DNA of 63,934 nucleotides, counting the filler, from Aduncisulcus paluster (Eukaryota), in assembly GCA_024181965.1 (NCBI GenBank). It is 7 parts of 7 records of this genome, joined end to end, with 100 filler letters (N's around TTAATTAATTAA, not from the genome) between each part and the next. Parts side by side here need not be neighbours in the genome. Positions count along the whole stretch, not along the records: positions 38,243 to 51,447 come from BQXS01010015.1; 6 more parts are not named here. One strand, written 5' to 3'. The position numbers and the translations under genes are program-made. The stretch's first letter is position 1. The number at the start of each line of letters is the position of its first letter. Below the pieces are notes generated by a model that was given only the letters and a program-made list of their open reading frames with translations, searched no databases and was not told the DNA's origin. This document shows, one piece after another, positions 6,460 to 62,395 of the stretch.

Positions 6460-6532
6460 GGGGGTGTAGCTCAGCTGGTAGAGCGCTTCCTTAGCATGGA
6501 AGAGGCCTTGGGTTCGAGTCCCAACATCTCCA
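6460..6532 (+). tRNA. tRNA-Ala (AGC), intronless, no encoded CCA
   Basis: Full cloverleaf: acceptor GGGGGTG/CATCTCC+A with the G3:U70 alanine identity pair, D-arm GCTCAGCTGGTAGAGC, anticodon arm CTTCC-TTAGCAT-GGAAG, T-arm TTGGG-TTCGAGT-CCCAA. Confidence 0.97.
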
Positions 6533-6833
6533 AATTTATTTAAGAATTGATCCTGTGAAGGAACGAAAGAACCCAGGTCAAACCACATCACATGCCATGC
6601 GTGAAATTTTAGGGCAAATACAATGGTTTCCTCCAAATTTCCTTACTATTGACAAAATTAGCTTGATTAATCAAATTCTATTCTAAAAATAGAAAATCTA
6701 AAAATAGAACTTGTCAATTATTTAGATGAATTTATTGGGAAGAACATAACTTTCTCAGTCATTAATCATCAAATATTCGTCTAAAAATGTTCAAAAGAGA
6801 CATTTCAAATGGAATTATTTGAACTTTGAAAAT

Positions 6834-8280: not shown

Positions 8281-8380
8281 NNNNNNNNNNNNNNNNNNNN
8301 NNNNNNNNNNNNNNNNNNNNNNNNTTAATTAATTAANNNNNNNNNNNNNNNNNNNNNNNNNNNNNNNNNNNNNNNNNNNN
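8281..8380. other. Artificial contig linker (N44-TTAATTAATTAA-N44)
   Basis: 100-bp spacer with a six-frame stop core; identical at six places in the window. Confidence 0.99.
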
Positions 8381-18026: not shown

Positions 18027-18126
18027 NNNNNNNNNNNNNNNNNNNNNNNNNNNNNNNNNNNNNNNNNNNNTTAATTAATTAANNNNNNNNNNNNNNNNNN
18101 NNNNNNNNNNNNNNNNNNNNNNNNNN
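18027..18126. other. Artificial contig linker
   Basis: N44-TTAATTAATTAA-N44. Confidence 0.99.
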
Positions 18127-21868: not shown

Positions 21869-22398
21869 AATAAAAAAGCTCGAATTTTCAACTTGAAGTT
21901 TTCTAAATGGAAATGACGGGCTTGAGTCGGGATCGATTCTTATTTTTTGTTTATTTCCCCCTATATAAATAATATAACCAATATTTGAAATAAAAATAGA
22001 ATCTGAGAAATCCTATCAAAAAAAAGAACTAAAAAAAATCCTGTCAGGAATGATTTTGTAAATATTATACATTTTTATTAATGGATTTTTTTAATAAAAA
22101 TGAGAAATAAACAAAAATAAATCNNNNNNNNNNNNNNNNNNNNAATAAAAAAGCTCGAATTTTCAACTTGAAGTTTTCTAAATGGAAATGACGGGCTTGA
22201 GTCGGGATCGATTCTTATTTTTTGTTTATTTCCCCCTATATAAATAATATAACCAATATTTGAAATAAAAATAGAATCTGAGAAATCCTATCAAAAAAAA
22301 GAACTAAAAAAAATCCTGTCAGGAATGATTTTGTAAATATTATACATTTTTATTAATGGATTTTTTTAATAAAAATGAGAAATAAACAAAAATAAATC
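21869..22398. repeat. Assembly duplication (255 bp) across the 20-N gap at 22124-22143
   Basis: 21869-22123 repeated from 22144. Confidence 0.9.
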
Positions 22399-25400: not shown

Positions 25401-28400
25401 ATCTCATATTCCTCCAAACTCATCTACGAGTTTCTCAAGTTCTACGAGTTTCTCAAGTTCTATGAGTTCCTCACGATCTGCTGTGATAACCTATAAACAG
25501 AGAAATGACTTAATGCATCAATATTATAGGACTTTATTGATGGATGTCTTTAAGTTCCATACTAGTATAATTGATGGGTATTGTTTGAATCTCAAGAATG
25601 GAGTGAAATCAGATCCGCTTAAAATTCTAGGTTCTAGCTTATTTTCTCCAATTAATATGTCTTTTACTGATGAATCTTTCGCTCTTTATCATTCTCTTGA
25701 GAACGGATCTAATGAATTACAGCGAAAAGGAAGAATTAGGCGTGTAAAAGGACTGCCAGCAATGTATATTGGTCCAAATATCAAAGATCCAGATCCAAGA
25801 AAAGAAAAAGGGAAAAAAGATAAGGAAAAAAAGGCGGAATTAACACTAAATCATAGCAATTCTCTGCATTTCGTGTTGTGGTCCACCTTTTTGAATCTAG
25901 ATGGTAAAGCTAAAGCCAAAGAATGTTCAAAATATCTTGAAACCAAGCTTTCAGTTTCTTCGCGAAAAACATTAGCCGACAAGGGTTATCTTTCGCACGA
26001 TTACAACACTCCGACAGTTATGGGTTTCTTGACACGATCCATGTTCTCTACTCCAATTCACCATACAAAAACATGCATTATGCTGGCTTTGTGCGGTGTT
26101 CCTGTCTTTGGAAGTTGTTTATTGTCAGTATTGCAGACAGGATATGGGAAAGAAATACCCGTAAAGGGAAACACTGCTTGTGAGATTGTCTATGGAATAC
26201 ATGTACAGAAAATGTTTACTTCGAGTTCAAAGAAACATCGGCAAGAATATAATAGAGTTTCTGATCAGACGTCAATGCTTCCATTTGCTCCTTTATGCCA
26301 TGTTCTTGCACTTCTCGAGTGGAGAGTATTATTCCCCTTATCTATTGATGGAGCTGAGATTTCTTCTGAGGAAAATATGTGGTGTCAGAGAAGAGGAATA
26401 TCTATTTTTGGACTCAGAGACTGCCATCGAAGAGCTATGTCTATTCTTAGATCACTTATGGCTCTTGAAATATTTGGACTTCCTAGCGGTTTCACTGATT
26501 GTGAGAAGATCTGGCTTAATCAAGGCGTTTTGAATGCAGATGTGATTGATTCTATTTCTGGATATATCAAAGAATGTGAAAATGTTAGAAATAGCATTAA
26601 TCGAAGGCAACATCAAGTCATTTCTGATGCTATTGATACATTCCATGACCTATTATGGACTTTTAGAAAAGAGAAGAAGAAGGAAGAAGAAGAAGAGGAG
26701 GAGGAGCAGGAGGAAGAAGTGTTCAGAAAACATCCTATTAACTTGAAGAGCGAATCAATTCCAATCCAAGTTAAGTTTTCAAAGCTTTTCCTTGACTCTG
26801 TTGAGGATCAGATTGATGCTGATTCTGCATCTATCTCCATGAGTATGAAAGAACTTGTCAATTCGTGTGCTACTAATGTCTGGACAATCGCATATGCTCT
26901 GAAAGAGATCCATGAATGTCCATTTGATATCTTTTCAGTTACAGCTGTCTGTGATCAACTATGTGGTGAGTCTTATTGTATAAGAGGTATTAAATCTGTC
27001 CAAACCCAACTCTCTTCCTTTTCCTCTTCCTCCTCTTCCNNNNNNNNNNNNNNNNNNNNGGAGCAGGAGGAAGAAGTGTTCAGAAAACATCCTATTAACT
27101 TGAAGAGCGAATCAATTCCAATCCAAGTTAAGTTTTCAAAGCTTTTCCTTGACTCTGTTGAGGATCAGATTGATGCTGATTCTGCATCTATCTCCATGAG
27201 TATGAAAGAACTTGTCAATTCGTGTGCTACTAATGTCTGGACAATCGCATATGCTCTGAAAGAGATCCATGAATGTCCATTTGATATCTTTTCAGTTACA
27301 GCTGTCTGTGATCAACTATGTGGTGAGTCTTATTGTATAAGAGGTATTAAATCTGTCCAAACCCAACTCTCTTCCTTTTCCTCTTCCTCCTCTTCCTCCT
27401 CTTCCTCATCTTCATCTTCCTTTTCTCATCCAACACACCCAGCTCTGGATACAATAGAGGGGGGATTGTCTGCGGAGGAAAAGAAAGAACCTTTCCCGTC
27501 TCTCGTGTGCTCAGTGTTTGATGAATTGAATTCGTTTGAGACTAAAGCTAATATTGTGAAAAGAGAACGTACAGATAATGTTCTGATTAAAAAGAGGAAA
27601 GATATGAACGCAGACGTTGTTATTGAAAAGGTAGTCGACGTTAGAAGAAAGAAGAAATCCTTGAAGATTATGAAGAAGAAGCGAGGAATATTCCACTCGG
27701 ATGAAAGGATAGGACAATATAGTCAATCGCAAGAACTTCCGAAGAAAGATTTCCTTCATATCATTGGTAAAATTAAGACGAATCGCTCAATACAAAATGA
27801 CAAAGAGCTTGATGGAGATTTGGGGAGAGAAGACAGTGACATCAGTGAAGGTGAAGAAGAAGAAGAAGAGGAAGAAGAAGAAGAGGAAGAGGAAGAAGAG
27901 GAATCCAGTTCAAGTGACGAGTTGATAGATGAAAATGATCTTCAGTTCGATTCTCTTGCTCCTCCTGCTCCTCCTTCTCCTTCCAAGGGTATCAAAGATT
28001 TCTATTGTGATATCTCCAAGAAGATGACATCCATTCTCTCTAATATATGTAATGGTTTATTCGTTGTGGTATTACCCCATTCTGATTTTTCTTCTGAACA
28101 ACCTCTTGATAGCGAGTCTTCCAAGGTTCCTATGGAGCCATATCAAGGACACCAGCGAGTGAAAGGAGAAGAAAGGGTAAGGGAACAACCTAAACTCGAT
28201 GTTTTGTATGGATTCGTGTCATTAAACTGTGTCCAGTGTCGTTTGCATACATTCTCTCCCTTTTCTCTGTTATCCATACCCGTCATTTCTATGAATCAAG
28301 GTGTGTTCTTATCCTCAATTATCACCCATTCTCTTCAAAAATACTCAATAGCAATGCCTCTGCACCCTTTCTTAACGGGTGATGGGTCTGATAATGTTTC

Positions 28401-30201
28401 TCACTCTCTTTCTCTTTCTCTTTTGACTGATGATGCCAAAAAGAGATCTCTCGAGTTTGAACACTATCCATGTCAATATGTCCCTTTCTTCCCAATTCCT
28501 TTCCTAATTCGTCCGACAATACCATCTATTCGGACAGTCCACAAAAGCCCAATCGTCTTTGTTCAAAGCATGCTCGTACATGGCAAATCTGTTGATCTTC
28601 AGTACGAGGTTCCTATGGATTCCCAGGGGCATGATGGTGGCTTTGTTAACGAACTCCTTGATCCGGCTATATCCAAGACAATCGTGGGAACTTTCAGTCA
28701 AGTCTTTGCAGACACAAAAGATGGAGTTACAGAGTGTAGGATGATCAATCCTTCGATTGTTAGTTCAAAGGCTGCACTGCTTTCTGCGTTACTCTCTTCT
28801 CCGCTGTTAAAGATCCACGAGGGCAATGCCGATACTCATGATTCTCTTCGATGTGAGTATAAACTCATAACCGAAGCTGAGAGATCTGCAACGCTTTATC
28901 TTATGAAATGGCAGGATCAGGCAGTGAAAGAAAGAGCTCCTTTACCGACTCCTATTAACGAACATGTTGGTGAGTATTGTAATGGGAATGATATGAATGA
29001 ACCTTTGTCTGCCGATCCTTGCGAAAAAGAAGATGAGGCAGTGCCAAGAGATATCATCAAGAAAGAAAGTGAAAAAGAAATGGAGTCCGTTGACCCTGAA
29101 CCCATACAGAGATCAACGAGACAAGGTTTGGAAATTGATTTTGATAACGAAACTGTTCGCGCATATGATGATTCAAACTCAGAACAGTGTGAGGATGGCG
29201 ATTGGCGAGATCCAACAACACATGGCACTCAACTCGAGCAATTGAGTGAAGATGATAGCACTGAAAGTGATGATTTGGAGCAAAGTGATGATTTGGAGCA
29301 AAGTGAACTTGATGTGTTTGCCAAAAAATCGCAATTTGACACTTTCACTTGCTGTGCCAAGGATGCATTAACCATTTTTAAACTGTTTACCCGATTAACA
29401 GTGTCAGATTCTCCCGTATCTCAGCAATCCCTTGCTTCGATGGGTCTTGAACTTATGTATCCCAATCTCAGTGAATGGATTGAGAGAGGACAGGGCAAAG
29501 GTGATGATTTTGCATGGAAAATGTCCATTTATCCTGAAATATTGGAAACATATTGCCCATCAAATACTTGTCCATCTGATCGTAGTGGAGGTTTTAGCGG
29601 TAAGAGAATAAGTCCGGAGTTTTGTTTAGGTATTATTATTGACAAAGTCGTGCGTGATGAGAATGTAAAGCTATATAATCCTACAGGCACACCATGCATG
29701 GGTGAAGAAGATCCCTCGAAAAGTGGAGTATTTTCAAAGCTTGATAACTGGTCTTATACTTATAAACCTAGTCGTTTAGATAAGTTAAAGGGTGATTCTT
29801 CCTTCCCCGATGGTTTAGGAATTGTTGACACTGTCTCAATAGCTCCAATGGAAGAAGAGAGAGACATCAGTGGAGGAAGAAGAAAGGAGGAAGATATACA
29901 GGATAGCCCAGAGAAATATAGGCAAGAAGCAAGAGAAGCTGAGGATTTACTCGGGATATTTATAGATTTCGGTGATGAATTTGCACAAGAACACGTCACA
30001 TCTCAACAGCCACGCCTACACGTTGACATTACAGGCGAAGAAAAAGTATTGAAGGAGGGTGAAATTGTGTCTGCCGAAGAATCGTCATATTTACGTGAAG
30101 ATAGTGGGAATCATTCATTTATCAATGAATACTCAGAAGTTACAGATGAGAAGGATTATTCTGATGTTCAAAGCGTCATTCTATCAAGAGGAGAATTCTA
30201 A
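22465..30201 (+). CDS. Highly divergent DEAH/RHA-family (DExH) RNA helicase with large insertions; ~2,350 aa after removing two gap duplications
   Basis: Motif I DTGTGKT, Ia VCVQTRKISA, Ib MTVGIALR, II IDEIHE, IV DILVYLPT, V STSVSDSSITFPHLTTVIDSG, VI QRKGRIRR. Confidence 0.8.
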   Translation: MDERLIEEKIYRLSSDTGTGKTLIWPAIIYFREYATGHQVRVVCVQTRKISADSQYKYMKKIFGRHLEISLMTSEHSTFHPGSNIIIMTVGIALRAAMTGELWNYHYIFIDEIHEMNSDLEALAIIALNMLQFRRESRQRSILYSMLKECKYEISMPHSFSLFDFADFRCLFFASASSDLDSLLPVIESTGFQWQVNWQTLQANKVLLDLSLVQYVQRRKELGFEEFSIPDEILKEAETKYSELLKKSNEGRWLPDANCFETQYKQYIDKKIPKIFSDKSHFLKNGKLKIANLLKDKDPNVPFPYSESPIDMLSDLGNTSTHLGSNRQYILPYLELIDDMESCSSEPGKRDPFVEFHEHCAIIGLPMLAKRLKELERIITVRNKQILKQLRKKISDASLLDSSVVIFSKEEEEKLCDIIAFIACVSYKFNIDTVRQWRNHYGTEGIPFPSDILFKLEPLKSIVAKIDSLPRDDMNLKGIGGGLTSENSSVRKSSINRITSETRKKSSPFDHGSSSSLSKLDSSESKLQLEYKRDFIESREKEGSDILVYLPTVASLMKVQKRVVKGFSVEIDKKMHHFSIPLSQVYRLHALSFSSSIFERVIACPTPPKLPRVFLSTSVSDSSITFPHLTTVIDSGLIRKLRRGVAGMEGRDGGGIEISIAPFLKGNHVKSSEFSTTSERSSSSSSSSSSSSSTSTHQNPVIEIHRPPSKPTKQTISLPISKSSKPRLIIKKPSPVEPLTIKKKLVIQRGGKSLIXXXXXXXXISIAPFLKGNHVKSSEFSTTSERSSSSSSSSSSSSSTSTHQNPVIEIHRPPSKPTKQTISLPISKSSKPRLIIKKPSPVEPLTIKKKLVIQRGGKSLIINSGLTGSKSEKITIKKSLSLGSRPAGRAFSSAKTEISHKLPGYRTSTSTFTSKPINKLTPPLTLEVRSKISPLGSPRSPRQQTEPLRATNSDLDSNSTKRPLINPIQGTGKKTITIPSHIPPNSSTSFSSSTSFSSSMSSSRSAVITYKQRNDLMHQYYRTLLMDVFKFHTSIIDGYCLNLKNGVKSDPLKILGSSLFSPINMSFTDESFALYHSLENGSNELQRKGRIRRVKGLPAMYIGPNIKDPDPRKEKGKKDKEKKAELTLNHSNSLHFVLWSTFLNLDGKAKAKECSKYLETKLSVSSRKTLADKGYLSHDYNTPTVMGFLTRSMFSTPIHHTKTCIMLALCGVPVFGSCLLSVLQTGYGKEIPVKGNTACEIVYGIHVQKMFTSSSKKHRQEYNRVSDQTSMLPFAPLCHVLALLEWRVLFPLSIDGAEISSEENMWCQRRGISIFGLRDCHRRAMSILRSLMALEIFGLPSGFTDCEKIWLNQGVLNADVIDSISGYIKECENVRNSINRRQHQVISDAIDTFHDLLWTFRKEKKKEEEEEEEEQEEEVFRKHPINLKSESIPIQVKFSKLFLDSVEDQIDADSASISMSMKELVNSCATNVWTIAYALKEIHECPFDIFSVTAVCDQLCGESYCIRGIKSVQTQLSSFSSSSSSXXXXXXXEQEEEVFRKHPINLKSESIPIQVKFSKLFLDSVEDQIDADSASISMSMKELVNSCATNVWTIAYALKEIHECPFDIFSVTAVCDQLCGESYCIRGIKSVQTQLSSFSSSSSSSSSSSSSSFSHPTHPALDTIEGGLSAEEKKEPFPSLVCSVFDELNSFETKANIVKRERTDNVLIKKRKDMNADVVIEKVVDVRRKKKSLKIMKKKRGIFHSDERIGQYSQSQELPKKDFLHIIGKIKTNRSIQNDKELDGDLGREDSDISEGEEEEEEEEEEEEEEEEESSSSDELIDENDLQFDSLAPPAPPSPSKGIKDFYCDISKKMTSILSNICNGLFVVVLPHSDFSSEQPLDSESSKVPMEPYQGHQRVKGEERVREQPKLDVLYGFVSLNCVQCRLHTFSPFSLLSIPVISMNQGVFLSSIITHSLQKYSIAMPLHPFLTGDGSDNVSHSLSLSLLTDDAKKRSLEFEHYPCQYVPFFPIPFLIRPTIPSIRTVHKSPIVFVQSMLVHGKSVDLQYEVPMDSQGHDGGFVNELLDPAISKTIVGTFSQVFADTKDGVTECRMINPSIVSSKAALLSALLSSPLLKIHEGNADTHDSLRCEYKLITEAERSATLYLMKWQDQAVKERAPLPTPINEHVGEYCNGNDMNEPLSADPCEKEDEAVPRDIIKKESEKEMESVDPEPIQRSTRQGLEIDFDNETVRAYDDSNSEQCEDGDWRDPTTHGTQLEQLSEDDSTESDDLEQSDDLEQSELDVFAKKSQFDTFTCCAKDALTIFKLFTRLTVSDSPVSQQSLASMGLELMYPNLSEWIERGQGKGDDFAWKMSIYPEILETYCPSNTCPSDRSGGFSGKRISPEFCLGIIIDKVVRDENVKLYNPTGTPCMGEEDPSKSGVFSKLDNWSYTYKPSRLDKLKGDSSFPDGLGIVDTVSIAPMEEERDISGGRRKEEDIQDSPEKYRQEAREAEDLLGIFIDFGDEFAQEHVTSQQPRLHVDITGEEKVLKEGEIVSAEESSYLREDSGNHSFINEYSEVTDEKDYSDVQSVILSRGEF
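24434..25049. repeat. Assembly duplication (298 bp) across the 20-N gap at 24732-24751
   Basis: Offset 318 nt adds 106 spurious codons to the helicase ORF; the segment contains a poly-Ser (TCY)n tract. Confidence 0.9.
26703..27396. repeat. Assembly duplication (337 bp) across the 20-N gap at 27040-27059
   Basis: Offset 357 nt adds 119 spurious codons; bounded by poly-Glu and poly-Ser microsatellites. Confidence 0.9.
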
Positions 30202-30967: not shown

Positions 30968-31067
30968 NNNNNNNNNNNNNNNNNNNNNNNNNNNNNNNNN
31001 NNNNNNNNNNNTTAATTAATTAANNNNNNNNNNNNNNNNNNNNNNNNNNNNNNNNNNNNNNNNNNNN
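30968..31067. other. Artificial contig linker
   Basis: N44-TTAATTAATTAA-N44. Confidence 0.99.
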
Positions 31068-38142: not shown

Positions 38143-38242
38143 NNNNNNNNNNNNNNNNNNNNNNNNNNNNNNNNNNNNNNNNNNNNTTAATTAATTAANN
38201 NNNNNNNNNNNNNNNNNNNNNNNNNNNNNNNNNNNNNNNNNN
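38143..38242. other. Artificial contig linker
   Basis: N44-TTAATTAATTAA-N44. Confidence 0.99.
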
Positions 38243-39221
38243 CAAGTGCCACGACAGAATCCAGGCCTGGATTGCCCATATTGTGCAATTTATGGCAGTG
38301 GCTGAAATAGGCAGAAAAAGGTCTTCTGCCGTGAGTGTAACGATGCCATATTCACCTCTATTGGCGACCACATTCCATCAATTCCAGCAATCTTCACAAT
38401 CTCTCTCCTCTCTTCATCTCAACGCTAGAAGATCCCTCGTGCAAGTCTTGGGCACCCTGTTCAATATGTTCGGTGTATCCAAGTGTTTAGAAGGCTACAA
38501 GAAGAAGATTGAGATCCTTGAGTCATTGCATACTCCGACAACAATCGCCATTTCATCCCCTTCTCTCTCATCTTCCACTTCTTCTTCATCCTCTTCCCTT
38601 CATGCTCTCACAACATCCTCCTCTTCCGTCTCTTCCTCCTCTTCCTCCTCTTTTCCTGTTCCCTCCCATTCTTGTTCTCTATTCACATCTCTTGCAGACC
38701 TCTTGGAATGCCAGACACAACTCAGTGGTGCCGAAGAACATCAGGGCAGTGAAGGCGGTGGATCTGTATCATCCTCGGCTGAGCTTGTACGCCTTCTCAA
38801 GAAATTGTCAGGTGTTCTTCGTGTGTTCTTGTCCAATTTAACCTCTCATCTCGTGTGTGGATGCATAATGTCCGAGTGTGAGCGTTCATCGATTGATACT
38901 GTAAAAGTGGAGATTCAGTCGTCAGTAAGGAAAAGCTTCGTTCCTTCGATGATTTCTTTTGCTACAATGTGGAAAGATGAGATGAAACATGTGTCCATTG
39001 CTGAGGGGAGTGTGCAAAGATCAAGGGGAAAGCCAAGTGGGGGTTCTAGTGGTTCCGGTGGGAGACAAACTCTTGGAGATGGTGCCGGAGAAAAGAAAGA
39101 TGAACAAAGTGGAAGGACAACTCCGAAGAAAACACTGTCAAAAACTCTCCTTAAGGATAGACTTCGCCAGAAGTTGAAGAAGAAACCCTCTTCTATGGTT
39201 ATCCAAGAAGGAGGATCTTAA
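38243..39221 (+). CDS. Hypothetical Ser-rich protein, C-terminal part (5'-partial)
   Basis: Frame is open from the contig edge; helical segments with poly-Ser inserts. Confidence 0.65.
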
Positions 39222-39950
39222 ATTAGATTGGTGGAATATCTTGATTCATTTCAAATGATTTATTACATTAAAGAATAATATATTACAGTCATATATAAAC
39301 ACCATTGATTTCTGACCATGCGGAAAATGGAGCAGTGCAATGATTTACGACTCTATTTTTAGTTCTAGTGAGAAAGAATTATTTTTAGAAAATGGTGAAT
39401 ATTATTAAATCTAAAAGCTATTATAAAATAACAATTGCTTGAGCCAGAATTAATCCACCGAGAATTGCATTTTCTTTTGAAGCGTTTATTTTTATTTTTT
39501 AAACTTTTTTTATTATTATTATTTATCTCCTGTCTACCCGCTCACAACTATAATACTATCATAATTATTAATTATATATAAATAAGTTTAAAGTTACCTC
39601 ACGAACCTGACAGGAACACAACTTCCTTTGAATCGCTTTAGTAAAGTTTGACTTTGAGCTATAGATTCAAGGAACTGGAAAGGCTGTTAAATACCTAAAG
39701 AGAGAAGAAAGAACTTCAAATAAAATGAAAGAGACGATAATATTTGAGGAAATAGAAGCGAAATACATGATAACATGCTAACATGTGATATGAATTGATA
39801 CCGACAAATGAACTAGGACAACATATAACATCGATAATCGACAAAACGACAGATTAATGATACATAATATTATCAAAAAAAGATCAATCAGAAAAGCGTT
39901 AATGGAAACGAGAAGGAAACGAGAGGTTGACCGACAAAATGCCATCATTT

Positions 39951-41489
39951 TCACACCTTAACCTCCTGTTTGGTCTCAACCATCTCAATAGGATCCGTAT
40001 CCTCATCGTTGATGATGACAGTCTCACGGATCTTCTTTTTAATGTCACGAACCATAACGAACAGCACAGGAATACTGAGAAGAGTGGTGCAAATAAAGGC
40101 AGCAGGACCGACATAGAAGACTCCTTCCACACCAAGGGAGGATTTGGGGAATAAAATGGCAAAAGCAACGGAGAAAATAGGCTGAGAAATCCCAAGAGCA
40201 AGAGAAACGGCAATCTTATGCTGAACTTGGTAGTAACCCATAATGAGAGCTGGGAAAGCATACAACCACACACCAGACACACTTATACGAAGACATTTAG
40301 GAGCAACTTCAAGGAAATCAGGTTCGGTTCCAAAGGCTTTGCTTATGGGAACACCCAATATTTCGACGGCAATAATGAGACCACCACCAATAAGAATCAT
40401 GGCAGCAAAAGCATACTTCAGAGCTTTGTATACTCTATCATACCGGTTTCTACCGATATTGTAACCGATCAATGGAATAAAACCAAGGTTAATACCCATG
40501 GCAGGCATGACAACCAGAGAAGACAAACGGGCCATGGCACCCATCACAGCTTGATAGGTAACAATCCCCTGAAAGTCAAGGAATTTCTTGAAAGATCTGT
40601 TAAAAATAACGACAGCAACTTGGTTTCCAATGGAAGCAAAGAATTGTCCAAGACCAAGAGAGCAAATCTTACCAATCATGGGCCAATCAATGGAACTGAA
40701 TGCCTCTTTCCAAGCCAAGTTAACAGTAGCTCCACTCCTCTTTGGGAAGAAATAGAACCATATCATATAAATACCAACGACCATCTGGGAGGACACAGTG
40801 GAAATGGCCGCACCCTGAGTTCCAAGATTAAGAGCAAAGATAAGAATAGGGTCGAAGATAATGTTTAAGACCGAGGAGAAAATTTGGCGCCACATACTCA
40901 AGGTAGCCTTGTTTTCAACACGGAGCATAGGCCCCATGGCAGCAGTCAAACCATAACCAATTGGACCGGCACTCATGATTAACCCATATTGCTTTGCTCT
41001 TTCCATCGTATATTCATTGGCACCCAAGAATTCCAAGATCGGCTCCAATAGAGGAATGAAAATGGCAGGGAGGAGACAGTTTAATAATACTAGGAGAGAA
41101 ATGAAGTAAGTCAAGGCCTTATTGGCAGAGACAAAATCTCCTTTTCCAAGGGCAGGAGATATCACTGAACTTGCGCCAAATCCAAGAGATACATTCAAAG
41201 ACATGAAAACACCAATTTCCACAACCATAAATAGACTTACAGCAGCAAGATCAAGACTTGAAGACCGACCCAAATACATGGAATCCACAACGTTATAAAT
41301 GGCATTTAATCCCATGGAAATGATTGAAGGAATTGAAAGAGTCATCAATGTTTTAAAGATCTCATCTGAAGCAAGCATATAATGCCTTTTGGATTCAGCC
41401 TCAATCTTTGCCTTCTTTTTTGAAGAGTCTTTCCGACAACAAGTTTGAGGAGCTATTTCAGCTTCAACAACGTCGATGTTACCTCCCAT
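39951..41489 (-). CDS. MATE-family efflux transporter (MepA-like)
   Basis: LSIPSIISMGLNAIYNVVDSMYLG, LNIIFDPILIFALNLGTQGAAISTVSSQ, PLIGYNIGRNRYDRV; about 12 hydrophobic helices. Confidence 0.92.
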   Translation of the reverse strand: MGGNIDVVEAEIAPQTCCRKDSSKKKAKIEAESKRHYMLASDEIFKTLMTLSIPSIISMGLNAIYNVVDSMYLGRSSSLDLAAVSLFMVVEIGVFMSLNVSLGFGASSVISPALGKGDFVSANKALTYFISLLVLLNCLLPAIFIPLLEPILEFLGANEYTMERAKQYGLIMSAGPIGYGLTAAMGPMLRVENKATLSMWRQIFSSVLNIIFDPILIFALNLGTQGAAISTVSSQMVVGIYMIWFYFFPKRSGATVNLAWKEAFSSIDWPMIGKICSLGLGQFFASIGNQVAVVIFNRSFKKFLDFQGIVTYQAVMGAMARLSSLVVMPAMGINLGFIPLIGYNIGRNRYDRVYKALKYAFAAMILIGGGLIIAVEILGVPISKAFGTEPDFLEVAPKCLRISVSGVWLYAFPALIMGYYQVQHKIAVSLALGISQPIFSVAFAILFPKSSLGVEGVFYVGPAAFICTTLLSIPVLFVMVRDIKKKIRETVIINDEDTDPIEMVETKQEVKV

Positions 41490-41623
41490 TGCAACCAAAA
41501 TTCGAAGATATCGATTGATTGATATCACTGAGTTCGAGCGACTCTTTCGGTTTTTACCGGCGGAATGTTAACGAAACCTGTAGATATCAATCTCAACCTG
41601 ACTTTTGATTCCAAACAACACAT

Positions 41624-42490
41624 ATGGACACTCCATCTATCGTTTCACTTATTTTTTCCATTATTGGAACGATTGGGATGCTTCTTTTCACATATTGTTT
41701 CAAGTTCATCCAATTCACTCCCCTAAAGGTGTTTCTCATAGTCTCTTATATATACTTACTTGGTCCTAGTTATGTCTGGGCCTTTCATAATAATCTCGCC
41801 GAAGTCACAACGTCCGATCACGCATGGATTTCTTGGATGATTTGTGGGAGTTGGTTAGCAGCCACAGTATCCTTGAGTGAAATCTCATTTTACATTTTAA
41901 AGAACTCAATTTTTGAAATTCTATCGCCAACTAAAAATTTTGCTGTCGATCTCTTGTATTCCCCTCTAATCACCGTCCCTGGAGATATCCTCTGGTTTTC
42001 AGCCATTCTTTTCTCACTCATCCCAATTTGTTTTGCATTATTAGGTGATTGGATTGGCACACAAAAAATCTATTACGGATTTACAATTGTTAAAGATGCA
42101 TGCAACGCCTCCTTGTTTACTGCTGTAATCTCAGGTATTCTTGGATTATTTAGTATTATGGATGTTGGTTCTTTCATTTTTAAATTGAAAAAAGGAAAGC
42201 CCACCCATCCTGATCGAGTAACTTCACGATTCAAAGTATCCGTATGGTTCTTCCTTATTTTCAATTTTATTTATAATATTATCATTTGCATTGCCAGTAG
42301 TTTTCGATATGCGGCTGGTGATGATGCTGATAGTCCCGATTTGAATGTGGAACACGTCTCTTTCATCATTTTATCGATATTACCAATAGTTTATATGTTT
42401 GTCTTTACATTCCTTAGTGTTAATGCTTCTTCTTATCACACTAATTCGCAATCATCGCCCTCAACTCATTTGTTGTCACAAGAATCCTAG
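41624..42490 (+). CDS. Hypothetical multi-pass membrane protein (~7 TM)
   Basis: About seven hydrophobic stretches in 288 aa; no family motif recognised. Confidence 0.7.
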   Translation: MDTPSIVSLIFSIIGTIGMLLFTYCFKFIQFTPLKVFLIVSYIYLLGPSYVWAFHNNLAEVTTSDHAWISWMICGSWLAATVSLSEISFYILKNSIFEILSPTKNFAVDLLYSPLITVPGDILWFSAILFSLIPICFALLGDWIGTQKIYYGFTIVKDACNASLFTAVISGILGLFSIMDVGSFIFKLKKGKPTHPDRVTSRFKVSVWFFLIFNFIYNIIICIASSFRYAAGDDADSPDLNVEHVSFIILSILPIVYMFVFTFLSVNASSYHTNSQSSPSTHLLSQES

Positions 42491-43265
42491 AATCTGATTT
42501 CTTGGAATCTCTACTGAAACACTGTTTTAAATAAATCGAGGTTCATAATTTATTACTACAAGCGTATTTTTATTTGTTTGTTTTGATTTCAATTACAGTC
42601 GGCACCGCTGGTTGGAAGTTCCACTTCACCATTCAAAAAAAGGTTTTTTCTGGTTGAATGATAGCATAATAATATTGTGGGTATTCAAATGATGTGTAAA
42701 TTATAAGTGTCATCTGTATTTGGGAGTGATTTAGATTGTATCATCAAATAATATATTCAACTAATAATATAAGACAATGTTCTGATTCGGTTCTATCCAT
42801 CAATGTAGATTCAATTGAATCTAGTTCAATGGATCCATAGATAAATTCTCTTTATATGATTTATTTTGATATTCTTATTATTATTTTCTCTTCCATATCC
42901 ATGTTTCTAAAGTCTAAACGGTAGAACTGCTGGAGAGTAATTATTGGTGTCTAGGAAGACAAAACAGTTATACTTTGGATAAAAGAAGAGAATTCATCAA
43001 ATAATGATGAAAGAAGGAAATAGATGCAAAAAAAAAAAAAAAGTTGAAAAAAAACAAGGCAAAAGAAAAAAGAGAGAGCAATTTCCAGCAATCTAAAGAA
43101 TGAGGATAAAAATTGACAAGGAATAGTTATAGTAACTATTATGAGATCGAACTAGTAAATGAAATTGTTAAGAATTAAGAAATATAATAAAATTTTTTTA
43201 AAGGAACGTGAAAAATTTCTTCATGATTTTGATTTTAAATCTTAGATTTTCTTCCTTGTTATTTT

Positions 43266-44921
43266 TCAATCGTCTTCCTGACTTGAGTCCAAAAGTCTTG
43301 ATTTTTCAGTCAATAATCTCTTTTTGTCGGCGAAGTATTTCCTTGCATTGATCTCAAGGAACTTTGTGCCGATTCTAGGCTTATTCCCAGGCTTGTACTC
43401 GGGATGTCCCTTTAAATGAACTTCGTGAGGTGAGTGTGGACTCATCAATAGACACAAGAGAGAGAGGAGAGCAATGATACCCATAACAATGTAAGTAACC
43501 ATACTCGCCTGCTCAAAGTCAGCCGCGGGGATCTTGTCAAGATCAGAGGGATCATCGCCCATGGCTTCAAGAGCGAGATCTTGAACACAAATGGCAATAC
43601 TGGTACCAGCTGCATATCCCATCTCTCTGAATGTGCTCACGAGACCACTGGCAACACCTCTTAGATTGACAGGAGCGGATCCAAGGACGTACCCAGTGTT
43701 AACGGTCTGGAATGATCCCAAGAACATGGCAACGAAGCACAGCATCGCTGCAATCAACCAAGCATTGATCTTTGTCACAGCCGCCATCAAGAAGAGGAAC
43801 AGCCCTTGTCCAAGCACACTTACTAGCTTTTCATAGAAAGCAATGTACTTCTTCATGAAGATTCCACACACAACACTGCCCAGAATGAGGAATATACTCA
43901 TGGGGATGTAGCAGAGACCAATCTCAGTGGTTGTGAAGTTATACGAGTGCTGCATGAGCTGTGGAACCTGGTATATACAACAGGCTTGTGCAGCAAAAGT
44001 AATAAAGGCACCTACGAGAGAAGACATACAGGGCTTGAAGAGTAAAAGTGGAATGGGCAAGATAGGGAATTCTTGATAGTATTCCCAGACAATAGTCCCG
44101 GCCAGAGAAGCACACCCAATGAGGAAAATCAGAATACCAAGCCAAATAGAGTTTTCAAGCCAACTGATACCAAAAACAACAATGACAAGAGACACAAAAA
44201 GGAAAACCGCACCAACAATATCAAATTTTGCCTCTTTTATCTTCTTAACAGGAGGCAAATAGACCCATCCAAGGATGAGCCATATGATACCAAGTGGCAG
44301 GTTTATAAAGAAACACCACTCCCAACCAATGTATTGTGCAAATATTCCTCCTAATACAGGTCCAATAGCAGTGGCAATAGACATAAAAAGAGTCGCTAAT
44401 ACTTGGCAAGAGGGCAAGGAATCATGGCGAGAAAAATGGATCATCAAAGACATATTATTCGTGATTAACAAAGATGCAGCAAGACCTTGAAAAGCTCTCA
44501 TTGCAGCCATGAATGGAATTCCATAAGGACTCGGCACCCAACGCCCAATTCCACAAAAGGCACTAAATATGATAAAAAAGAACATTCCAATACGGTGAAC
44601 AATCACTGTACCATATCTATCTCCAATTTTACCAGCAATTGTGCTTCCTGCACTCAAAGCTAAGTTATAAGTGAGAGTAATCCATTCAGTTGAGCTTTCA
44701 TCAACACCAAATGTCTTTCCAATATCATAAAGGCAAACCGAAATAATACTGAGATCCATTGCAGAAAGGATTAAAGACCCTGCAAGCACAGTCATGAGTA
44801 ATCCAGCTTGCATATGATTTTTCAAATATACGATTCCTGTTTCGGGATCAATTTCCTTATCACCAATGAATTCTTCTTCTTCACCCAAGCGTGGATCTAA
44901 ATCATCAGCTAATTTTACCAT
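43266..44921 (-). CDS. MFS drug:H+ antiporter, DHA2 (EmrB/QacA-like, 14 TM)
   Basis: LSAMDLSIISVCL (motif D1), GKIGDRYG (motif A), RAFQG (motif B), AIGPVLGGIF (motif C), WEWCFFINLPLG (motif H), FDIVGAVFL. Confidence 0.92.
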   Translation of the reverse strand: MVKLADDLDPRLGEEEEFIGDKEIDPETGIVYLKNHMQAGLLMTVLAGSLILSAMDLSIISVCLYDIGKTFGVDESSTEWITLTYNLALSAGSTIAGKIGDRYGTVIVHRIGMFFFIIFSAFCGIGRWVPSPYGIPFMAAMRAFQGLAASLLITNNMSLMIHFSRHDSLPSCQVLATLFMSIATAIGPVLGGIFAQYIGWEWCFFINLPLGIIWLILGWVYLPPVKKIKEAKFDIVGAVFLFVSLVIVVFGISWLENSIWLGILIFLIGCASLAGTIVWEYYQEFPILPIPLLLFKPCMSSLVGAFITFAAQACCIYQVPQLMQHSYNFTTTEIGLCYIPMSIFLILGSVVCGIFMKKYIAFYEKLVSVLGQGLFLFLMAAVTKINAWLIAAMLCFVAMFLGSFQTVNTGYVLGSAPVNLRGVASGLVSTFREMGYAAGTSIAICVQDLALEAMGDDPSDLDKIPAADFEQASMVTYIVMGIIALLSLLCLLMSPHSPHEVHLKGHPEYKPGNKPRIGTKFLEINARKYFADKKRLLTEKSRLLDSSQEDD

Positions 44922-45296
44922 TATTATGGATTTTCTGCCCAATTGACCTTTTCCAAAATAATCGTGGAAAACTTTGTTATTCTTTCCACTTTTAGATCAG
45001 AAATAATAAAATCTGTAATGATCATATCAAATTACCTTTTTATTTTTTCGTATATGCAGATTTTTTGGGAGAATATGTTCCATAATAGAACACCTTCGAA
45101 ACGAAAAAGGGGATCATTAAAAGTGCCAGTGACTGGGTGGAAGCCAATTGAATTCATCGCCAAGTGTGTGTAAATAACACGATTAGTGCTACAATCGAAT
45201 TTATCGAATAATTGTACAACAGAGTTGGACGAAGAGCATCAACCATCATTTTTGAAACTTAACCACACATGGCAACGCCAAAAGAATCGAATTATA

Positions 45297-48200
45297 TTAA
45301 TCTGTTACACTGTCTAAAGTAAATGATGCGTAGTAAATAGTACTGATACCCAGTTCAAGCCCTATATATCCTTGTGGGGAGGTTTTGACACACAAACATA
45401 GAGCAACGTCTGTAAACACATTTTCTCTTGCAAGATAAAAAAGTTTCCCTGGAGTATCACATCCCACAGCGCAAGTGGTACCAGCTGCCTGTATGTTTGA
45501 TGAGAATGGAGAAATAATAATTCCCTCATCGCTCGCCACATATTTGGTAGAAATAAGAGCATCATCAGTGACTGTCAAAGAGGTTGAAGCACTAGCGTCA
45601 ACCAAGGTCAGCGATTTTGCTTTCAAATCGGTGTAACCTGCGGTACCTTGGAAGGATAAAAGAGAACTTGTCCAGGTCAGTTTCAAATAATATCCACCAC
45701 TATTATACAAATAAAGATTTGTATTAGCGGTATATAGTCTGGAACTGACATATAACTCATCAAACAGAACTTTATCAGCAAAAGTAACTAGATCGCCAGA
45801 CACTGTAATTCCATTAGAACCATTAGGATCGAAATAAACATCGTTCACTTCAAAGGATTCTAATACCGCATTCGTGGAAATCGTCACATTGCCTGAATCA
45901 TCGTAAATTTGTGATGTTCCAAGGTACAGATAATTTCCCGAAGTAATATACAAATTAGAAGCATCGAGAGTAAGATCATCAGAAACTATCAAGCTATCAT
46001 CAATCTCAATTCCATTAACAGTTTTGGACATTGTTGAAGTTGAGCTACTCCCATTACCCCACGTTATTGATGTCACGTTTTGAATATTCAAACCATATCC
46101 TCCATTTGTAATGGTGTTTGTTCCAAAGGTCAGAGATCCAATCTCCATAGCAACATCACTGGCATCAACACTACTAAGATTTGAAAGATCAAGGGAGGTA
46201 CCATACAAAGAGAGATCATTCCCAGAAATAGAAAAATAGAGACTCGAAGAACCCAAGTACATGTATGAACCATTAAATGTAACATTATCGTTGAACACAG
46301 AAACATCACTAACAGTAAAATCTCCACTAACAGAGACATTTTGATAAAATGTAAAGCTGTCTCCAGAAGCATTCATCTTGTAACTATTCAAAAACATTCC
46401 ATTGGCAGAGTTAATATAAAGACCACTACTTGTTCCAGTCAACTCAACATTTGAACCCAACTCAAGTGTCTCATTATTGCCCATTGTAATTCCTCCATTG
46501 AATGTTGTATTCCCAGAAATATTGAAGCCCCCATTAATGTTATCTGCCGATAAAGTGTAGGATCCTAATTTCAGATTTGTGGCATTGATTATGAGGGTAT
46601 TTCCATATTCTTGGCTAATGGAAACACTTGAACCAATATAATATCTTTGGTCGGAGTCAATCTTAACATGGGCACTAGCAATTTCAAGAGATGTTGAAGG
46701 AGCAGTAATTACAATATCATTTACAGAGAGGTTATCCGTTTCCAATGACAACGCACTGATTCCACCAGAGAAATTAGCAACATTCGAAGAATCAACAGTG
46801 ATTGTATTAGATCCACTATCTGACAAAACAAAAGTTGGAGCAGTAATCGAGTATGAACCTTGAATTTCGATACTACCATAAACATCAAGCGTTGTACTGC
46901 CTCCCCCAGATAATAACACTCCATTAACTTTGATATCTGTATCAAAATCTAGGTAAGAGCCTGAAGTCTTTGTAATCGTTGCGGATCCTAGTTTAAAATA
47001 ATCTTCACTTCCACCTGAGGAAACGGTCAAAGTATTGGCGTCTATCTTCACATTGTGAGAAATTTGAAGATAATTTGGAGCTGATGCAATTCTTTCCAAC
47101 GTAATATCATTAATCGTCAGTGTGCTACCAGTTATAGTAAGTTCATCGGTATAGAAATAGTCAGTTGTTAGGGACGTATCTACAATAAGATTATCATAAA
47201 CAGTGATTGTGTTAGAAGCGGTACGTTTGAATAAAGCATCTTGATCTTGCCCAAGATATAGAGAATCAAAAACAGTAATCGAATCAGAAGCAACAATATT
47301 AGACCCATAAATACCAGAATCGAATGAAAGATAGCCACTGTATGTTCCAGAATCCAATTTAGCCATGGTGATTCCTTCAACAGAGAAACTAGTGTTCAGA
47401 GATAGAAGATCTGAAGAATAGGAGAGAGTGGCACCACTAGACCCGCCAATCTTAAGGGAGGAGCTCTCCAAACGGACACCAGCACTATTATCGATAACAA
47501 AGACGCCTGACTCATCTCCANNNNNNNNNNNNNNNNNNNNTACCAGAATCGAATGAAAGATAGCCACTGTATGTTCCAGAATCCAATTTAGCCATGGTGA
47601 TTCCTTCAACAGAGAAACTAGTGTTCAGAGATAGAAGATCTGAAGAATAGGAGAGAGTGGCACCACTAGACCCGCCAATCTTAAGGGAGGAGCTCTCCAA
47701 ACGGACACCAGCACTATTATCGATAACAAAGACGCCTGACTCATCTCCAAGTTCAATTGAACCAATTGTGACAGTTCCTCCAACGACATTGATTGATCCG
47801 GTGGGCCATTTGGCTGAATGAGAGAAACTAATTGTTTCGTCTCCACCATCAAACGATAGTTGTGCCTCGTCAATTTCAACATAACCAGCGACAGAGACAT
47901 TCGCAGCGAAGGAAGCATTTGAATTGACCGATAGGGTTGCTGAAGATCCATCAAGAATAATGTTTGAGCCTAATTTCAGAGAGTTATTAACGTACAAATC
48001 CGAATTTATATACATATAATCATCACTACCATCATTGTACTTCTGGAAGGATATTCCATCGACTGAGAGACTCCCATCAAGAGTAATATCTCCACTCAAG
48101 GAGATATCCCCAGTGATCGTTGCATCTCCACCAACACTCAGATCGTTAGTGATATTCAAATTAGAGGCATTGAAATCACCAGACAAGGTCAAAGAATCAG

Positions 48201-51200
48201 TTCCGGCACCTCCATCGACTCCAGTAAGAACAGCTCCATTGATAGTCACCGTTCCAGTTGTAACAAATGAAGACACTGTTGATGCACCGGCATTCAAAGT
48301 TCCGCTCACAACTAGGTTATCGGAGATCGTCAATTGATAGGAGGTTGAATCAGAAGTCCCAGTTAAAGTGACATCGTTAATATAGATTTCACCGTCTACA
48401 TCCAGGTTCCCATCGACACTAACATCGGAAGCAATAGCAAAATACCCTCCAGATACCTCTCCGATCGAGACACCGTTCACAATCATCGTGCGATCAACAG
48501 TCAAAACGTCATCAGTCGTGTCGTAACGAATGGTAGCATTTTCCAATATAAGACCGGCATTCTCAACAGTGAGATTAATATCACTAGAAATATTGAGTTG
48601 AGAGGGTCCATTGTATTCCAGATCAATAGAATTAGCGACAGGTCCTAGACTAAATAGGGTTCCAGTTGCAGCAATACTTCCAGAGATCGTGGTGTTTCCA
48701 CCTACACTAAGGGGAGCAGAAACAGTGAAGATCCCACCATAATCATAGAGTTGTAAATTATTCGAGCCAAGCAAGATATGCCCGGCCAGATCAAGATCAT
48801 CATCTACAGTCAATTGTCCTGAAACAGTCGTATCATTGGACATAGTCACATTTCCAGAGATAGTGGTGGGAGCTGCTATTTCGAGAGTTCCACTATTATC
48901 GGTGAAGACAACACTAGCTAAAGTAAAGGTAGACCCAGTAATAGTGAGGGAATTATCAATCGATAGTGAAGATGCAGAATAAACTAATTCTGTGCTTCCA
49001 AGCGTGAATGATCCAGTAACCGAGAGATTTGAGTTATCACTAATGAACACGTCATTGTTAATGTCAAGACCATTGATAGTGGGAACGAGAACAGTGCTGG
49101 CAATGGAATCATCAGTTGAAGTCAAAGTAATGGAAGGTGTAAGGCTATTCACAGTGATAGGAACATTAAGTCCAAGATAAGCCATCGAGGCATCAAGGTG
49201 GGCATTTCCAAGATCTAAAACGCCATCAATGACCACATCTCCAGAAATATTCAAATTTCTTCTGATATAAGCATCTTGATCAACAGAGAGATCATCAGAT
49301 ATGATCAGAGTCTTTTGGTTTGTGGTTCCATCGAGTTCTCCTGAAATAATGGCGGTTGATCCAAGAGTAATGGAATCGGTAACGTTAAGTGAAGTGAGAG
49401 TCGCATTTGTAGCTATCAAATCATCATTGATATCAACATTACCCGCTATTGATAATACAAAAGAGGAATCATTAGATGCGCTCATCACAATATCATACAT
49501 GGTTATGGAGCCTGCAATGTCAATGGAGCCTCCCAAGATAAGTGGAGAACCAATGTTAAGAGAACTGTCATCCAAGGAGACATCAATGGTGTTAATTCTA
49601 ATGTCAGAATCAATGGCGAGAACNNNNNNNNNNNNNNNNNNNNATTTGTAGCTATCAAATCATCATTGATATCAACATTACCCGCTATTGATAATACAAA
49701 AGAGGAATCATTAGATGCGCTCATCACAATATCATACATGGTTATGGAGCCTGCAATGTCAATGGAGCCTCCCAAGATAAGTGGAGAACCAATGTTAAGA
49801 GAACTGTCATCCAAGGAGACATCAATGGTGTTAATTCTAATGTCAGAATCAATGGCGAGAACACCACTGTCATCAGTTAACGAAATGCCACTGACGGATC
49901 CAATTTGAACATAATCACCATCCACCACAAGAGAATGGCTAAGTTCGAGATAATTGACAGATCCATCATTTCCAGCAGTCATAGTAAGGGGTCCAAGAGA
50001 GAGAGCGTTGGCATCAATATCAAGAGATCCGGTAACAGATAGAGAGCCGGTGAACAACCCATCTCCATTCACAGTTAGATCACCACTTTGAACAGTGAGG
50101 GAGTCAGTAATGATAACATCATTGCCAATCGTTAGGTCCGAGAGATTACTTGTAATGACTGTCGTGTTCAACTTCAAATCGGTATTGAGGGTTGCGTAAC
50201 CATCGGTGGCTGAATAAGATAGAGAAGCGGAGTTCGTGAGGTATAATGTTCCTTCTGTGGATGTTAAAGATCCTGAAGCTACGTAATTCCCAGAGAGTTG
50301 TAACACATATGAAGAATCATTAGATCCAGAAAGAACAACTTCATTGAGAGAGATCGTTCCGGTCGTGCTCAGATTTCCAGTAATATCAGTGCTCTCTGCG
50401 ATATGGAAATTGTTACTCACGAGCTTCTCAAGTTTAATCCCATTGATCATCAAGTCTGTTGACAGATCAAGATAATCGGAGGTAGAATCAACATGGGTGA
50501 GCACAGATTCTCCAATTGTAACGATCCCAGTGTCAAAAACTGTATCATTGCCAACATGGAGAATGTTGGAACTGTGTTGAAGGGTGACGAATGATGCCCC
50601 AGATGATAACCCAAGGTAGAGTGTTCCATTGGCAACTGTCAGAGCTCCATTGTTAACAACAGTAGCTGTGCTTACAGAGAGTTCGGAATCATCGCTCGAA
50701 TATGCAAGAACAGAACTTCCTACGGTGACTTGACCAGTAACAGTAAGATCGCCGGAAATAGAAGTTGAGTTCCCAATTGAAAGGACAGATGCATTATCAG
50801 TGAGTGTAACGGTACCTATTTGAACATAGGAATTGTTAACATACAGTGGTTTGTTGATGGTGAGGAGTGAAGAAGACCCAAGAATAGAAACGCCATTCAA
50901 ATTGAGAGTTCCGTTGTTGAAAGTGACCACTCCATCAGTGACAAGGGTCCCCTCAAGAGAGGTGTTGCCCTCCACAGTGAGGGAATCAGTGGATACAATA
51001 TCAATGGCAGTGAATGTGCCATTCAATCCAAGTCCACCTGATCCAGTGGCAGACAGCTCAGCAGTTTTAATGTGGAGATCGTTATCCATATAAAAAAAGG
51101 AGTCGGAAGAATCATGGGAAATTGTGGCACCAGCAAGAGTAATAACCCCGCCAACAACTTTAATATCATCTGTAACCTTGAGATTCCCATTAACAGTCAA

Positions 51201-51447
51201 TAAGTTTGTCCCGAGATCATTGGCATCCTCACCGCCTCCCAAAATAGTTCCATTGAGAACAATAGAACCAGAATCTACAACATTCAAATTCCCATGCACG
51301 TCAGTTGATGCAGCAATGGAGAAGTTTGAGGATTGATTTGAAATTTCAATGCCATTCATATAGATATCCTTATTGACTTCGAGGCGATCACTAACTGCGT
51401 TGTATTCAATCGAGGAGGAGGATGTGAGATAAAGAAGACCAGTGTCA
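45297..51447 (-). CDS. Giant repetitive beta-strand fibre/adhesin-like protein (5'-partial, >=~1,890 aa)
   Basis: ORFs 49503..51359, 47512..49575 and 45297..47609 join into one frame once two gap duplications are collapsed. S/T/G/D/N/L/I/V-rich with recurring short units (LSVGGDATITGDISLSGDITLDGSLSVDG); Cys is confined to the last ~60 aa. Confidence 0.8.
47312..47749. repeat. Assembly duplication (209 bp) across the 20-N gap at 47521-47540
   Basis: 47312-47520 repeated from 47541. Confidence 0.9.
49405..49862. repeat. Assembly duplication (219 bp) across the 20-N gap at 49624-49643
   Basis: 49405-49623 repeated from 49644. Confidence 0.9.
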
Positions 51448-51547
51448 NNNNNNNNNNNNNNNNNNNNNNNNNNNNNNNNNNNNNNNNNNNNTTAATTAAT
51501 TAANNNNNNNNNNNNNNNNNNNNNNNNNNNNNNNNNNNNNNNNNNNN
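51448..51547. other. Artificial contig linker
   Basis: N44-TTAATTAATTAA-N44. Confidence 0.99.
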
Positions 51548-62295: not shown

Positions 62296-62395
62296 NNNNN
62301 NNNNNNNNNNNNNNNNNNNNNNNNNNNNNNNNNNNNNNNTTAATTAATTAANNNNNNNNNNNNNNNNNNNNNNNNNNNNNNNNNNNNNNNNNNNN
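62296..62395. other. Artificial contig linker
   Basis: N44-TTAATTAATTAA-N44. Confidence 0.99.

Follow-up and report, generated by a model that had tools for sequence, protein, structure and literature searches.

A giant repeat gene in the genome assembly of Aduncisulcus paluster and the trimeric beta-helical fibre predicted as its product

Can a cellular eukaryote hold a gene for a giant fibre of the type built by phages and giant viruses? The question is raised by one locus in the genome assembly of Aduncisulcus paluster, a fornicate metamonad, i.e. a free-living anaerobic bacterivorous flagellate related to Giardia. The window, which here means the whole stretch of DNA analysed (63,934 bases), consists of seven contig stretches chained by 100-base linkers (44 N + TTAATTAATTAA + 44 N), and one of these contigs (38243-51447, 13,205 bases) carries a very long minus-strand gene, hereafter the fibre gene (Table 1). 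The original prediction had described its product as a giant, fibre-like beta-repeat protein in a eukaryote. Overall, we favour the explanation that this is an intron-free nuclear gene of at least 1893 codons whose product forms a homotrimeric beta-helical surface fibre, and taken as a whole we consider this explanation slightly better than even (probability about 0.55).

In the assembly, the gene appears to be spread over three minus-strand stop-to-stop frames (45297-47624, 47512-49659 and 49503-51491), which hold the peptides listed in the original prediction. This three-frame appearance is caused by two 20-N gaps that carry duplicated overlaps, as the frame changes exactly there; at the first of them, the apparent shift arises because the length of the duplicate, 209 nt, is not a multiple of 3. 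Five of the six 20-N gaps in the window were flanked by exact duplicates of 209-337 nt and the gap at 15280 by a near-duplicate of 339 nt, and these gaps with duplicated flanks are contig overlaps that were left unmerged by the scaffolder. Once one duplicate copy and the Ns had been removed at each of the two gaps in the fibre gene, a single ORF (open reading frame) was obtained without a stop up to the contig end at 51447, in agreement with the protein of at least about 1,890 amino acids that had been predicted. Read-contigs from two public runs of the same sample (X1 and X2, one contig each) span 43058-51447 with 0 other letter differences, and their joints skip exactly 229 and 239 nt at the two duplicate-plus-gap sites. 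They cover both the fibre gene and the downstream MFS transporter gene, a continuity that the original prediction had marked for checking; the fibre gene is continuous, intron-free over its visible part and physically joined to the MFS gene. The 5' end of the gene is cut by a contig-joining linker and not by biology, and given this linker the DNA beyond 51447 belongs to another contig rather than to the upstream region of the fibre gene; the X1 and X2 contigs reach 360 nt past 51447 (at most about 120 further codons). The deposited model (P0004, 1982 aa, 'hypothetical protein ADUPG1_006719, partial [Aduncisulcus paluster]') retains part of both duplications, and the practical lesson is that it contains two spurious partial duplications that stem from unmerged scaffold overlaps.

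The residues S, T, L, G, D, V, N and I together make up 79% of the fibre protein (S 14.9%, T 11.1%, L 11.0%, G 10.0%, D 8.6%), which is acidic and poor in Lys and Arg, as had been stated (isoelectric point 4.05; K+R 42/1893 residues, 2.2%). The higher-order repeat that had been noticed at least four times is real and commoner than that: a repeat hidden Markov model (HMM), iterated from one copy until it converged, detected 22 copies. The units cluster into super-units of roughly 90-200 residues that are mutually 18-36% identical (alignment A2, ten super-units with non-overlapping rows, which replaced the earlier alignment A1 with overlapping rows). Internal BLAST of chunk versus chunk returned 38 distinct self-matches (best 47.8 bits, E 1.5e-11) compared to 0 in each of 20 shuffles, and the hydrophobic residues of the array follow a six-position periodicity (autocorrelation at lag 6 of 0.108, compared to a mean of 0.000, a standard deviation of 0.024 and a maximum of 0.076 in 1000 shuffles). 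The repeat alignment has no conserved stretch of 7-10 columns. At the DNA level, Tandem Repeats Finder returned 0 rows for 45000-51500, suggesting that the repeats are old and detectable at the protein level only. The first 27 visible residues resemble the end of a super-unit and the array therefore probably extends upstream. Downstream of the array, the C-terminal non-repeat region gave no match in Pfam or PHROG; we propose that it may act as a distal tip or assembly domain. All four Cys of the protein lie within it, in line with the Cys-containing end of the original prediction, and the C-terminal membrane segment said to be missing was indeed not found there (best 19-residue Kyte-Doolittle mean 1.32 in the tail) nor elsewhere in the fibre protein (1.38).

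Three copies of one super-unit (residues 908-1080) were predicted to form an intertwined homotrimer with a score of 0.87 (runs 0.87, 0.88 and 0.87), compared to 0.00 for the best of three controls. Among the calibration proteins, the score mark was attained by 21 of 30 whose solved form is a pair of one chain and by 0 of 23 solved as single chains; for eukaryotes it was attained by 17 of 29 and by none of 30 single chains, but by only 1 of 7 that lacked an older solved relative. The runs agreed in at least 95% of contacts with a partner pLDDT (predicted local distance difference test) of at least 87, and about 900 inter-chain residue pairs covered nearly all residues 13-173 of the segment. The pLDDT was 88-89 in the trimer, as opposed to 63-73 for two copies combined with an unrelated third chain. 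Between copy 2 and copy 3, the pairs of lowest error were shifted by some 3-7 residues, most commonly by 5-7 (e.g. 58 with 64 and 116 with 123). An interface on almost every residue together with a register shift of one strand suggests an intertwined triple beta-helix and not three self-contained helices side by side, with the intertwining deduced from the contact list and not from coordinates. A homotrimer with intertwined chains and inter-chain sheets, the hallmark of viral triple beta-helix fibres, was thus obtained in silico, as the original prediction of a trimeric beta-helix had anticipated. When residues 908-1080 were predicted as an AlphaFold2 (AF2) monomer with the other super-units as alignment rows, the pLDDT was 57 and strands were almost absent up to residue 139; going by these models, the segment most likely does not fold as a lone chain.

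Searches with single sequences did not detect any relative of the fibre protein. With the C-terminal 740 aa as query, phmmer found only the gene's own annotated model in 1.84 billion representatives, as did a word-indexed search of the middle piece against longer proteins, and close relatives were not found in IMG/VR, in JGI metagenome contigs or in one genome per species of 185,579 prokaryote species. Among PHROGs nothing fell below E 0.07 (best E 0.076, function unknown), and a single piece searched by sequence against PDB reached E 0.021 at best. Bactofilin (PF04519) was the only Pfam family near its threshold, with 27.1 bits for a 694-aa middle piece and 26.7 bits for a 173-aa super-unit (gathering cut-off 27.9) and matches at E <= 1 in three of the ten super-units. 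Collar, Gp10_C, Peptidase_G2/S74, Phage_spike and PTL_trimer gave no Pfam match at E <= 5 on any piece, the family repeats, anchors or sorting domains of trimeric autotransporters, two-partner-secretion haemagglutinins and type IX secretion system (T9SS) cargo were likewise absent in Pfam at E <= 5, and a Hexapep match was not found on the fibre protein. On these sequence comparisons, the fibre gene is an orphan that belongs to none of the named families compared. In the literature, we found no paper with 'ADUPG1', none that joins 'triple beta-helix' and 'bactofilin', and none on such a protein in fornicates.

When 8000 candidates were scored with a profile built from the ten super-units, as opposed to any single sequence, 14 further proteins came out at E <= 0.01. 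The check for homologues suggested by the original prediction was negative for single sequences; at the repeat level it reached giant-virus and phage-fibre-like proteins. One family of 1814-1833 aa was matched at E 3.0e-13 to 2.0e-6 and another, of 596-919 aa, at E 1.8e-13 to 3.7e-3; the rest are three singletons, one with Bactofilin, Collar and Gp10_C (P0133, E 2.5e-6), one with a weak Peptidase_G2 match and one with Bactofilin and a weak Phage_spike match. Ten of the 13 scanned relatives carry Bactofilin at E <= 0.01 and three exceed the cut-off. Both top families sit on contigs of giant-virus metagenome-assembled genomes (MAGs) of IMG/VR (five loci, L001-L005, and one locus, L006, respectively), and at L001 the repeat gene adjoins PCNA, mRNA_triPase (mRNA capping triphosphatase), DUF5832 and DUF5767. 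The likeness to the viral proteins depends on residue order (41-69 bits, compared to -37 to 21 reversed and at most 0.9 shuffled), and hhalign against family A4 gave a probability of 93% (E 2.7e-7, 70 columns, 16% identity). At the C-terminus, BLASTP of the last 183 residues against P0130 reached E 0.077 at best, with a match that falls within the repeats rather than at the C-terminal end. We also likened the Cys tail to the conserved Cys/Trp tail of the giant-virus family and rejected the comparison, as BLAST gives no support and the C-termini are unlike. The two giant-virus MAG families themselves are conserved, consist mostly of bactofilin-type repeats and have identical last three residues. 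Bactofilin-annotated genes in Imitevirales are interpreted as cytoskeletal in one publication (PMC12192438); the giant-virus 'bactofilin' matches seen here may instead mark fibre shafts.

The origin of the contig was assessed separately. The assembly (25,863 contigs, 39.1% GC) was made with MaSuRCA from a culture that contained food bacteria, and decontamination removed only non-metamonad matches of >95% identity (PMC9933649); because the culture was non-axenic and the decontamination light, contamination needed testing. The MFS neighbour best matches two A. paluster paralogues (45% and 33% identity) on contigs of 10,345 and 41,491 bases, and its next matches are bacterial DHA2/EmrB-type transporters with at most 29% identity among the matches listed. 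The relative synonymous codon usage of three fibre-gene pieces correlates at 0.43-0.79 with that of the BEACH, WD40 and LRR-kinase genes of the window; host genes of the window correlate with each other at 0.56-0.86. In tetranucleotides, five of the six other contigs correlate with the rest of the fibre contig at 0.92-0.94, and the 1.5-kb contig c7 does so at 0.82, a weakly discriminating measure for which giant-virus loci reach 0.81-0.90 with a host contig. The other genes on the 13.2-kb contig are MFS_1, MatE and two ORFs without a Pfam family; in its visible part, no viral hallmark gene and no viral or prophage neighbourhood was found, and the 312-aa ORF had no relative in viral contigs. 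We conclude that the fibre contig is very probably nuclear DNA of A. paluster. The claim that the gene lies in a eukaryote is hence supported by the MFS link, the host paralogues and the host-like codon usage and flanks, and stays short of proof for a non-axenic assembly, while the structural part of the original prediction holds in silico. As to the neighbours themselves, the MFS gene is one of a three-member A. paluster family that looks like an old bacterial acquisition, later expanded. The two ORFs without a Pfam family lie at 38283-39221 (+, 312 aa) and 41624-42490 (+, 288 aa), and the codon usage of the latter is unlike that of all other genes of the window (correlation 0.06-0.58), so that it may not be a gene.

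Several observations weigh against a host-encoded trimeric surface fibre. The trimer is one model's confidence, and the tool was calibrated on two copies and ignored the repeat alignment; its pass may reflect memory of solved viral fibres. A usable monomer model was not obtained (AF2 pLDDT 41 for the C-terminal 740 aa), and in fold searches with the low-confidence monomer model of residues 908-1080 neither Foldseek (best E 0.39) nor VIA (best Z 2.6) reached significance. Of the two fold checks envisaged by the original prediction, trimer modelling was positive; in the Foldseek search, run on this low-confidence model, the top ten non-significant rows were all T4 gp34 fibre chains (E 0.39-1.5). 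The likeness to viral proteins holds at the repeat level only, and its bias terms are large (88-170 bits); on the fibre protein, the full-length HMM built for the 1814-1833 aa family (A3) scored -54.2, compared to a shuffled mean of -52.4, with only local domains of -3 to 11 bits. The repeat profile also matches left-handed beta-helix chains of LpxD (E 0.0011-0.0054, 20-22 bits), which gives some weight to a hexapeptide-type single-chain helix. Export is without sequence support: the visible ORF starts at the contig end, so that the region of a signal peptide or anchor lies outside it, and NxS/T sequons were not enriched (47 compared to 38.5 +/- 5.1). The light decontamination of a non-axenic culture (PMC9933649) and the weak discrimination of the tetranucleotides count on the same side.

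An alternative explanation, and the rival that survives best although we consider it rather unlikely, is that the fibre gene is a captured or endogenous viral structural gene. It would encode a capsid or tail fibre of a giant or other large DNA virus of fornicates, integrated beside host genes and still serving the virus or decaying neutrally, with no host function and an unchanged fold. All profile relatives of known source are viral or phage-fibre-like, one of the giant-virus families comes near in size to the at least 1893 residues found here, bactofilin-annotated genes occur in Imitevirales as mentioned above, and for both the last 183 residues and the C-terminal piece as a whole, every language-model neighbour is a viral (phage) cluster (0.88-0.91, with low shared-feature counts, a lead only). 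However, the frame is intact across 1893 codons, the codon usage is host-like and the MFS neighbour has host paralogues, on a contig where viral hallmarks and viral relatives of the 312-aa ORF were not detected. The HMM of the giant-virus family is not collinear with the fibre protein either, the C-termini differ, and IMG/VR held no close relative.

The second rival, which we regard as improbable, concerns the fold. According to it, each chain forms a lone, very long bactofilin-like or hexapeptide-type helix, i.e. a single-chain beta-solenoid that acts as an intracellular cytoskeletal polymer or monomeric surface rod, and the trimer is an artefact. Bactofilin as the nearest Pfam family and the weak LpxD matches (E about 1e-3) are consistent with such a solenoid, and a six-residue periodicity suits 18-residue coils equally well. 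By contrast, the monomer prediction did not produce a solenoid, although at pLDDT 57 it is too poor for a judgement on a self-contained helix, the trimer was predicted with high confidence relative to its controls and with contacts on nearly all residues, unlike helices that lie side by side, and the protein is ten times the length of a bactofilin and does not reach the family score. The last rival, that the 13.2-kb contig comes from a food bacterium in the culture and the ORF is a bacterial surface adhesin, would suit the culture conditions and a contig with MFS, MatE and an intronless giant repeat protein, but is very improbable given that the MFS protein is closer to A. paluster proteins of other contigs than to the bacterial proteins listed, that the C-terminal 740 residues have no relative among the 1.84 billion representatives or the 185,579 prokaryote species, that Pfam showed no adhesin, secretion or sorting domain, and that the composition fits contigs carrying BEACH, WD40 and kinase genes.

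Under the favoured explanation of a homotrimeric surface fibre, some 22 degenerate units of about 67 residues, each built of six-residue beta-strand/turn steps, would co-fold from three chains that wind round one another into a triple beta-helix-like shaft, as in phage and giant-virus fibres. Such a shaft would be long, rigid, acidic and poor in Lys and Arg, and would resist proteases. With a 4.8 A layer per about six residues per chain, a layer geometry taken from T4 gp5, the array of about 1600 residues would measure about 100-130 nm. The Cys-bearing non-repeat C-terminus of about 270 residues would form the far end; in viral fibres, the far C-terminal position serves binding or assembly. 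After export, the fibre would be presented on or shed from the cell surface, where its tip would bind bacteria or a substrate. The original prediction had proposed a co-opted fibre for prey capture, adhesion or an extrusome-like filament. Among possible roles, we rank first a fibre, borne on the surface or released, that would serve to attach or to catch prey, second a fibre gene of viral origin that still serves a virus or serves nothing, and third a single-chain intracellular polymer. More specifically, and more tentatively than the overall explanation, we suggest that a cellular eukaryote may make its own viral-type triple beta-helix fibre of >100 nm as a surface or extruded appendage for catching bacteria or attaching. 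To our knowledge, intertwined trimeric beta-helix fibres, a hallmark of virus attachment organelles, have so far come mainly from phages and giant viruses. If the suggestion is true, this architecture is used, or has been captured, by a cellular eukaryote, and a fibre for own use would mean either ancient capture from a fornicate virus or independent invention of the fold. It would also supply a candidate for a surface structure in a lineage with hardly any known cell-surface proteins and would hint at unsampled large DNA viruses of metamonads.

Table 1 Positions of the fibre gene, its parts, its neighbour, and the gaps and linkers of the window; locus coordinates of the giant-virus repeat genes are given for comparison.
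Feature	Position	Strand	Remarks
Whole visible fibre gene	45297..51447	-	One ORF, 1893 codons + stop after collapsing two duplicated overlaps; 5' open at contig end
Stop codon of fibre gene	45297..45299	-	
C-terminal non-repeat region	45300..46100	-	Residues 1627-1893 (~270 aa); no repeat-HMM unit
Cys cluster	45390..45473	-	Residues 1836, 1840, 1861, 1863; the protein's only four Cys
Repeat array	46101..51365	-	Residues 28-1626; 22 copies of ~67-residue unit, ~9 near full length
Super-unit	47968..48486	-	Residues 908-1080; best bactofilin-like stretch, 26.7 bits (cut-off 27.9); segment modelled as homotrimer
Assembly artefact	47312-47540	.	47312-47520 exact duplicate of 47541-47749 (209 nt) + gap 47521-47540
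Assembly artefact	49405-49643	.	49405-49623 exact duplicate of 49644-49862 (219 nt) + gap 49624-49643
MFS_1 transporter gene	43266..44942	-	Same strand, 355 nt downstream of fibre gene stop; host-context marker
20-N gaps in window	15280-15299, 22124-22143, 24732-24751, 27040-27059, 47521-47540, 49624-49643		
Contig-joining linkers	8281-8380, 18027-18126, 30968-31067, 38143-38242, 51448-51547, 62296-62395		44 N + TTAATTAATTAA + 44 N
Giant-virus MAG repeat genes	L001 10001-15463; L002-L005; L006 1581-4736		

Some further observations concern the rest of the window. Gene order is arbitrary across the six linkers, and inferences from adjacency there are unsafe. Deposited gene models pick up false frame shifts, and false duplications within genes, from the duplicated overlaps at the 20-N gaps, and an ORF at 22465-30201 (+, 2578 codons including gap X's), which has an N-terminal DEAD/ResIII helicase match only and no Pfam family in its remainder, is probably affected by them too. 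A complete alanine racemase gene was found at 4879-6198 (+; Ala_racemase_N and Ala_racemase_C, E 1e-54 and 8e-43) on a contig with clearly eukaryotic genes, which also holds a tRNA-Ala(AGC) (6459-6533) and a WD40 gene (6834-8258), and is a candidate lateral transfer from bacteria.

Triple beta-helix shafts are known from phage fibres and spikes, e.g. the C-terminal needle of T4 gp5, gp12 and gp34. Similar to these, the A. paluster protein is predicted to have three intertwined chains with a short register shift in a long repetitive shaft, has an acidic composition with much Ser, Thr, Gly and Asn, and has a shaft that is followed by a non-repeat C-terminal end. It differs in that no significant sequence or fold match and no phage terminal or chaperone domain or gene context were found, and in that the gene comes from the assembly of a eukaryote and greatly exceeds most phage shafts in length. 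In bactofilins, small cytoplasmic proteins of one domain that polymerise into a bacterial cytoskeleton, each chain forms its own helix. The fibre protein shares their six-residue strand rhythm, whereas it scores below the gathering cut-off, is ten times longer with its 22 units and is predicted to need three chains. The singleton P0133 has a repeat shaft of the same type, topped by Collar and Gp10_C tip domains that the A. paluster protein does not carry. The giant-virus MAG proteins (P0126-P0132 at L001-L005; P0125 and P0136-P0138 at L006) are built of the same bactofilin-type, 'LSVxG'-like strand repeats, and the longer family is also similar in overall size; unlike the A. paluster gene, which stands beside transporters, the viral gene stands beside PCNA and a capping enzyme, and the proteins share no collinear similarity and differ in their termini. 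A trimeric beta-helical fibre with bactofilin-type repeats is a kind of protein known from viruses, and what is new is an intact orphan gene of this predicted kind beside host transporters in a metamonad.

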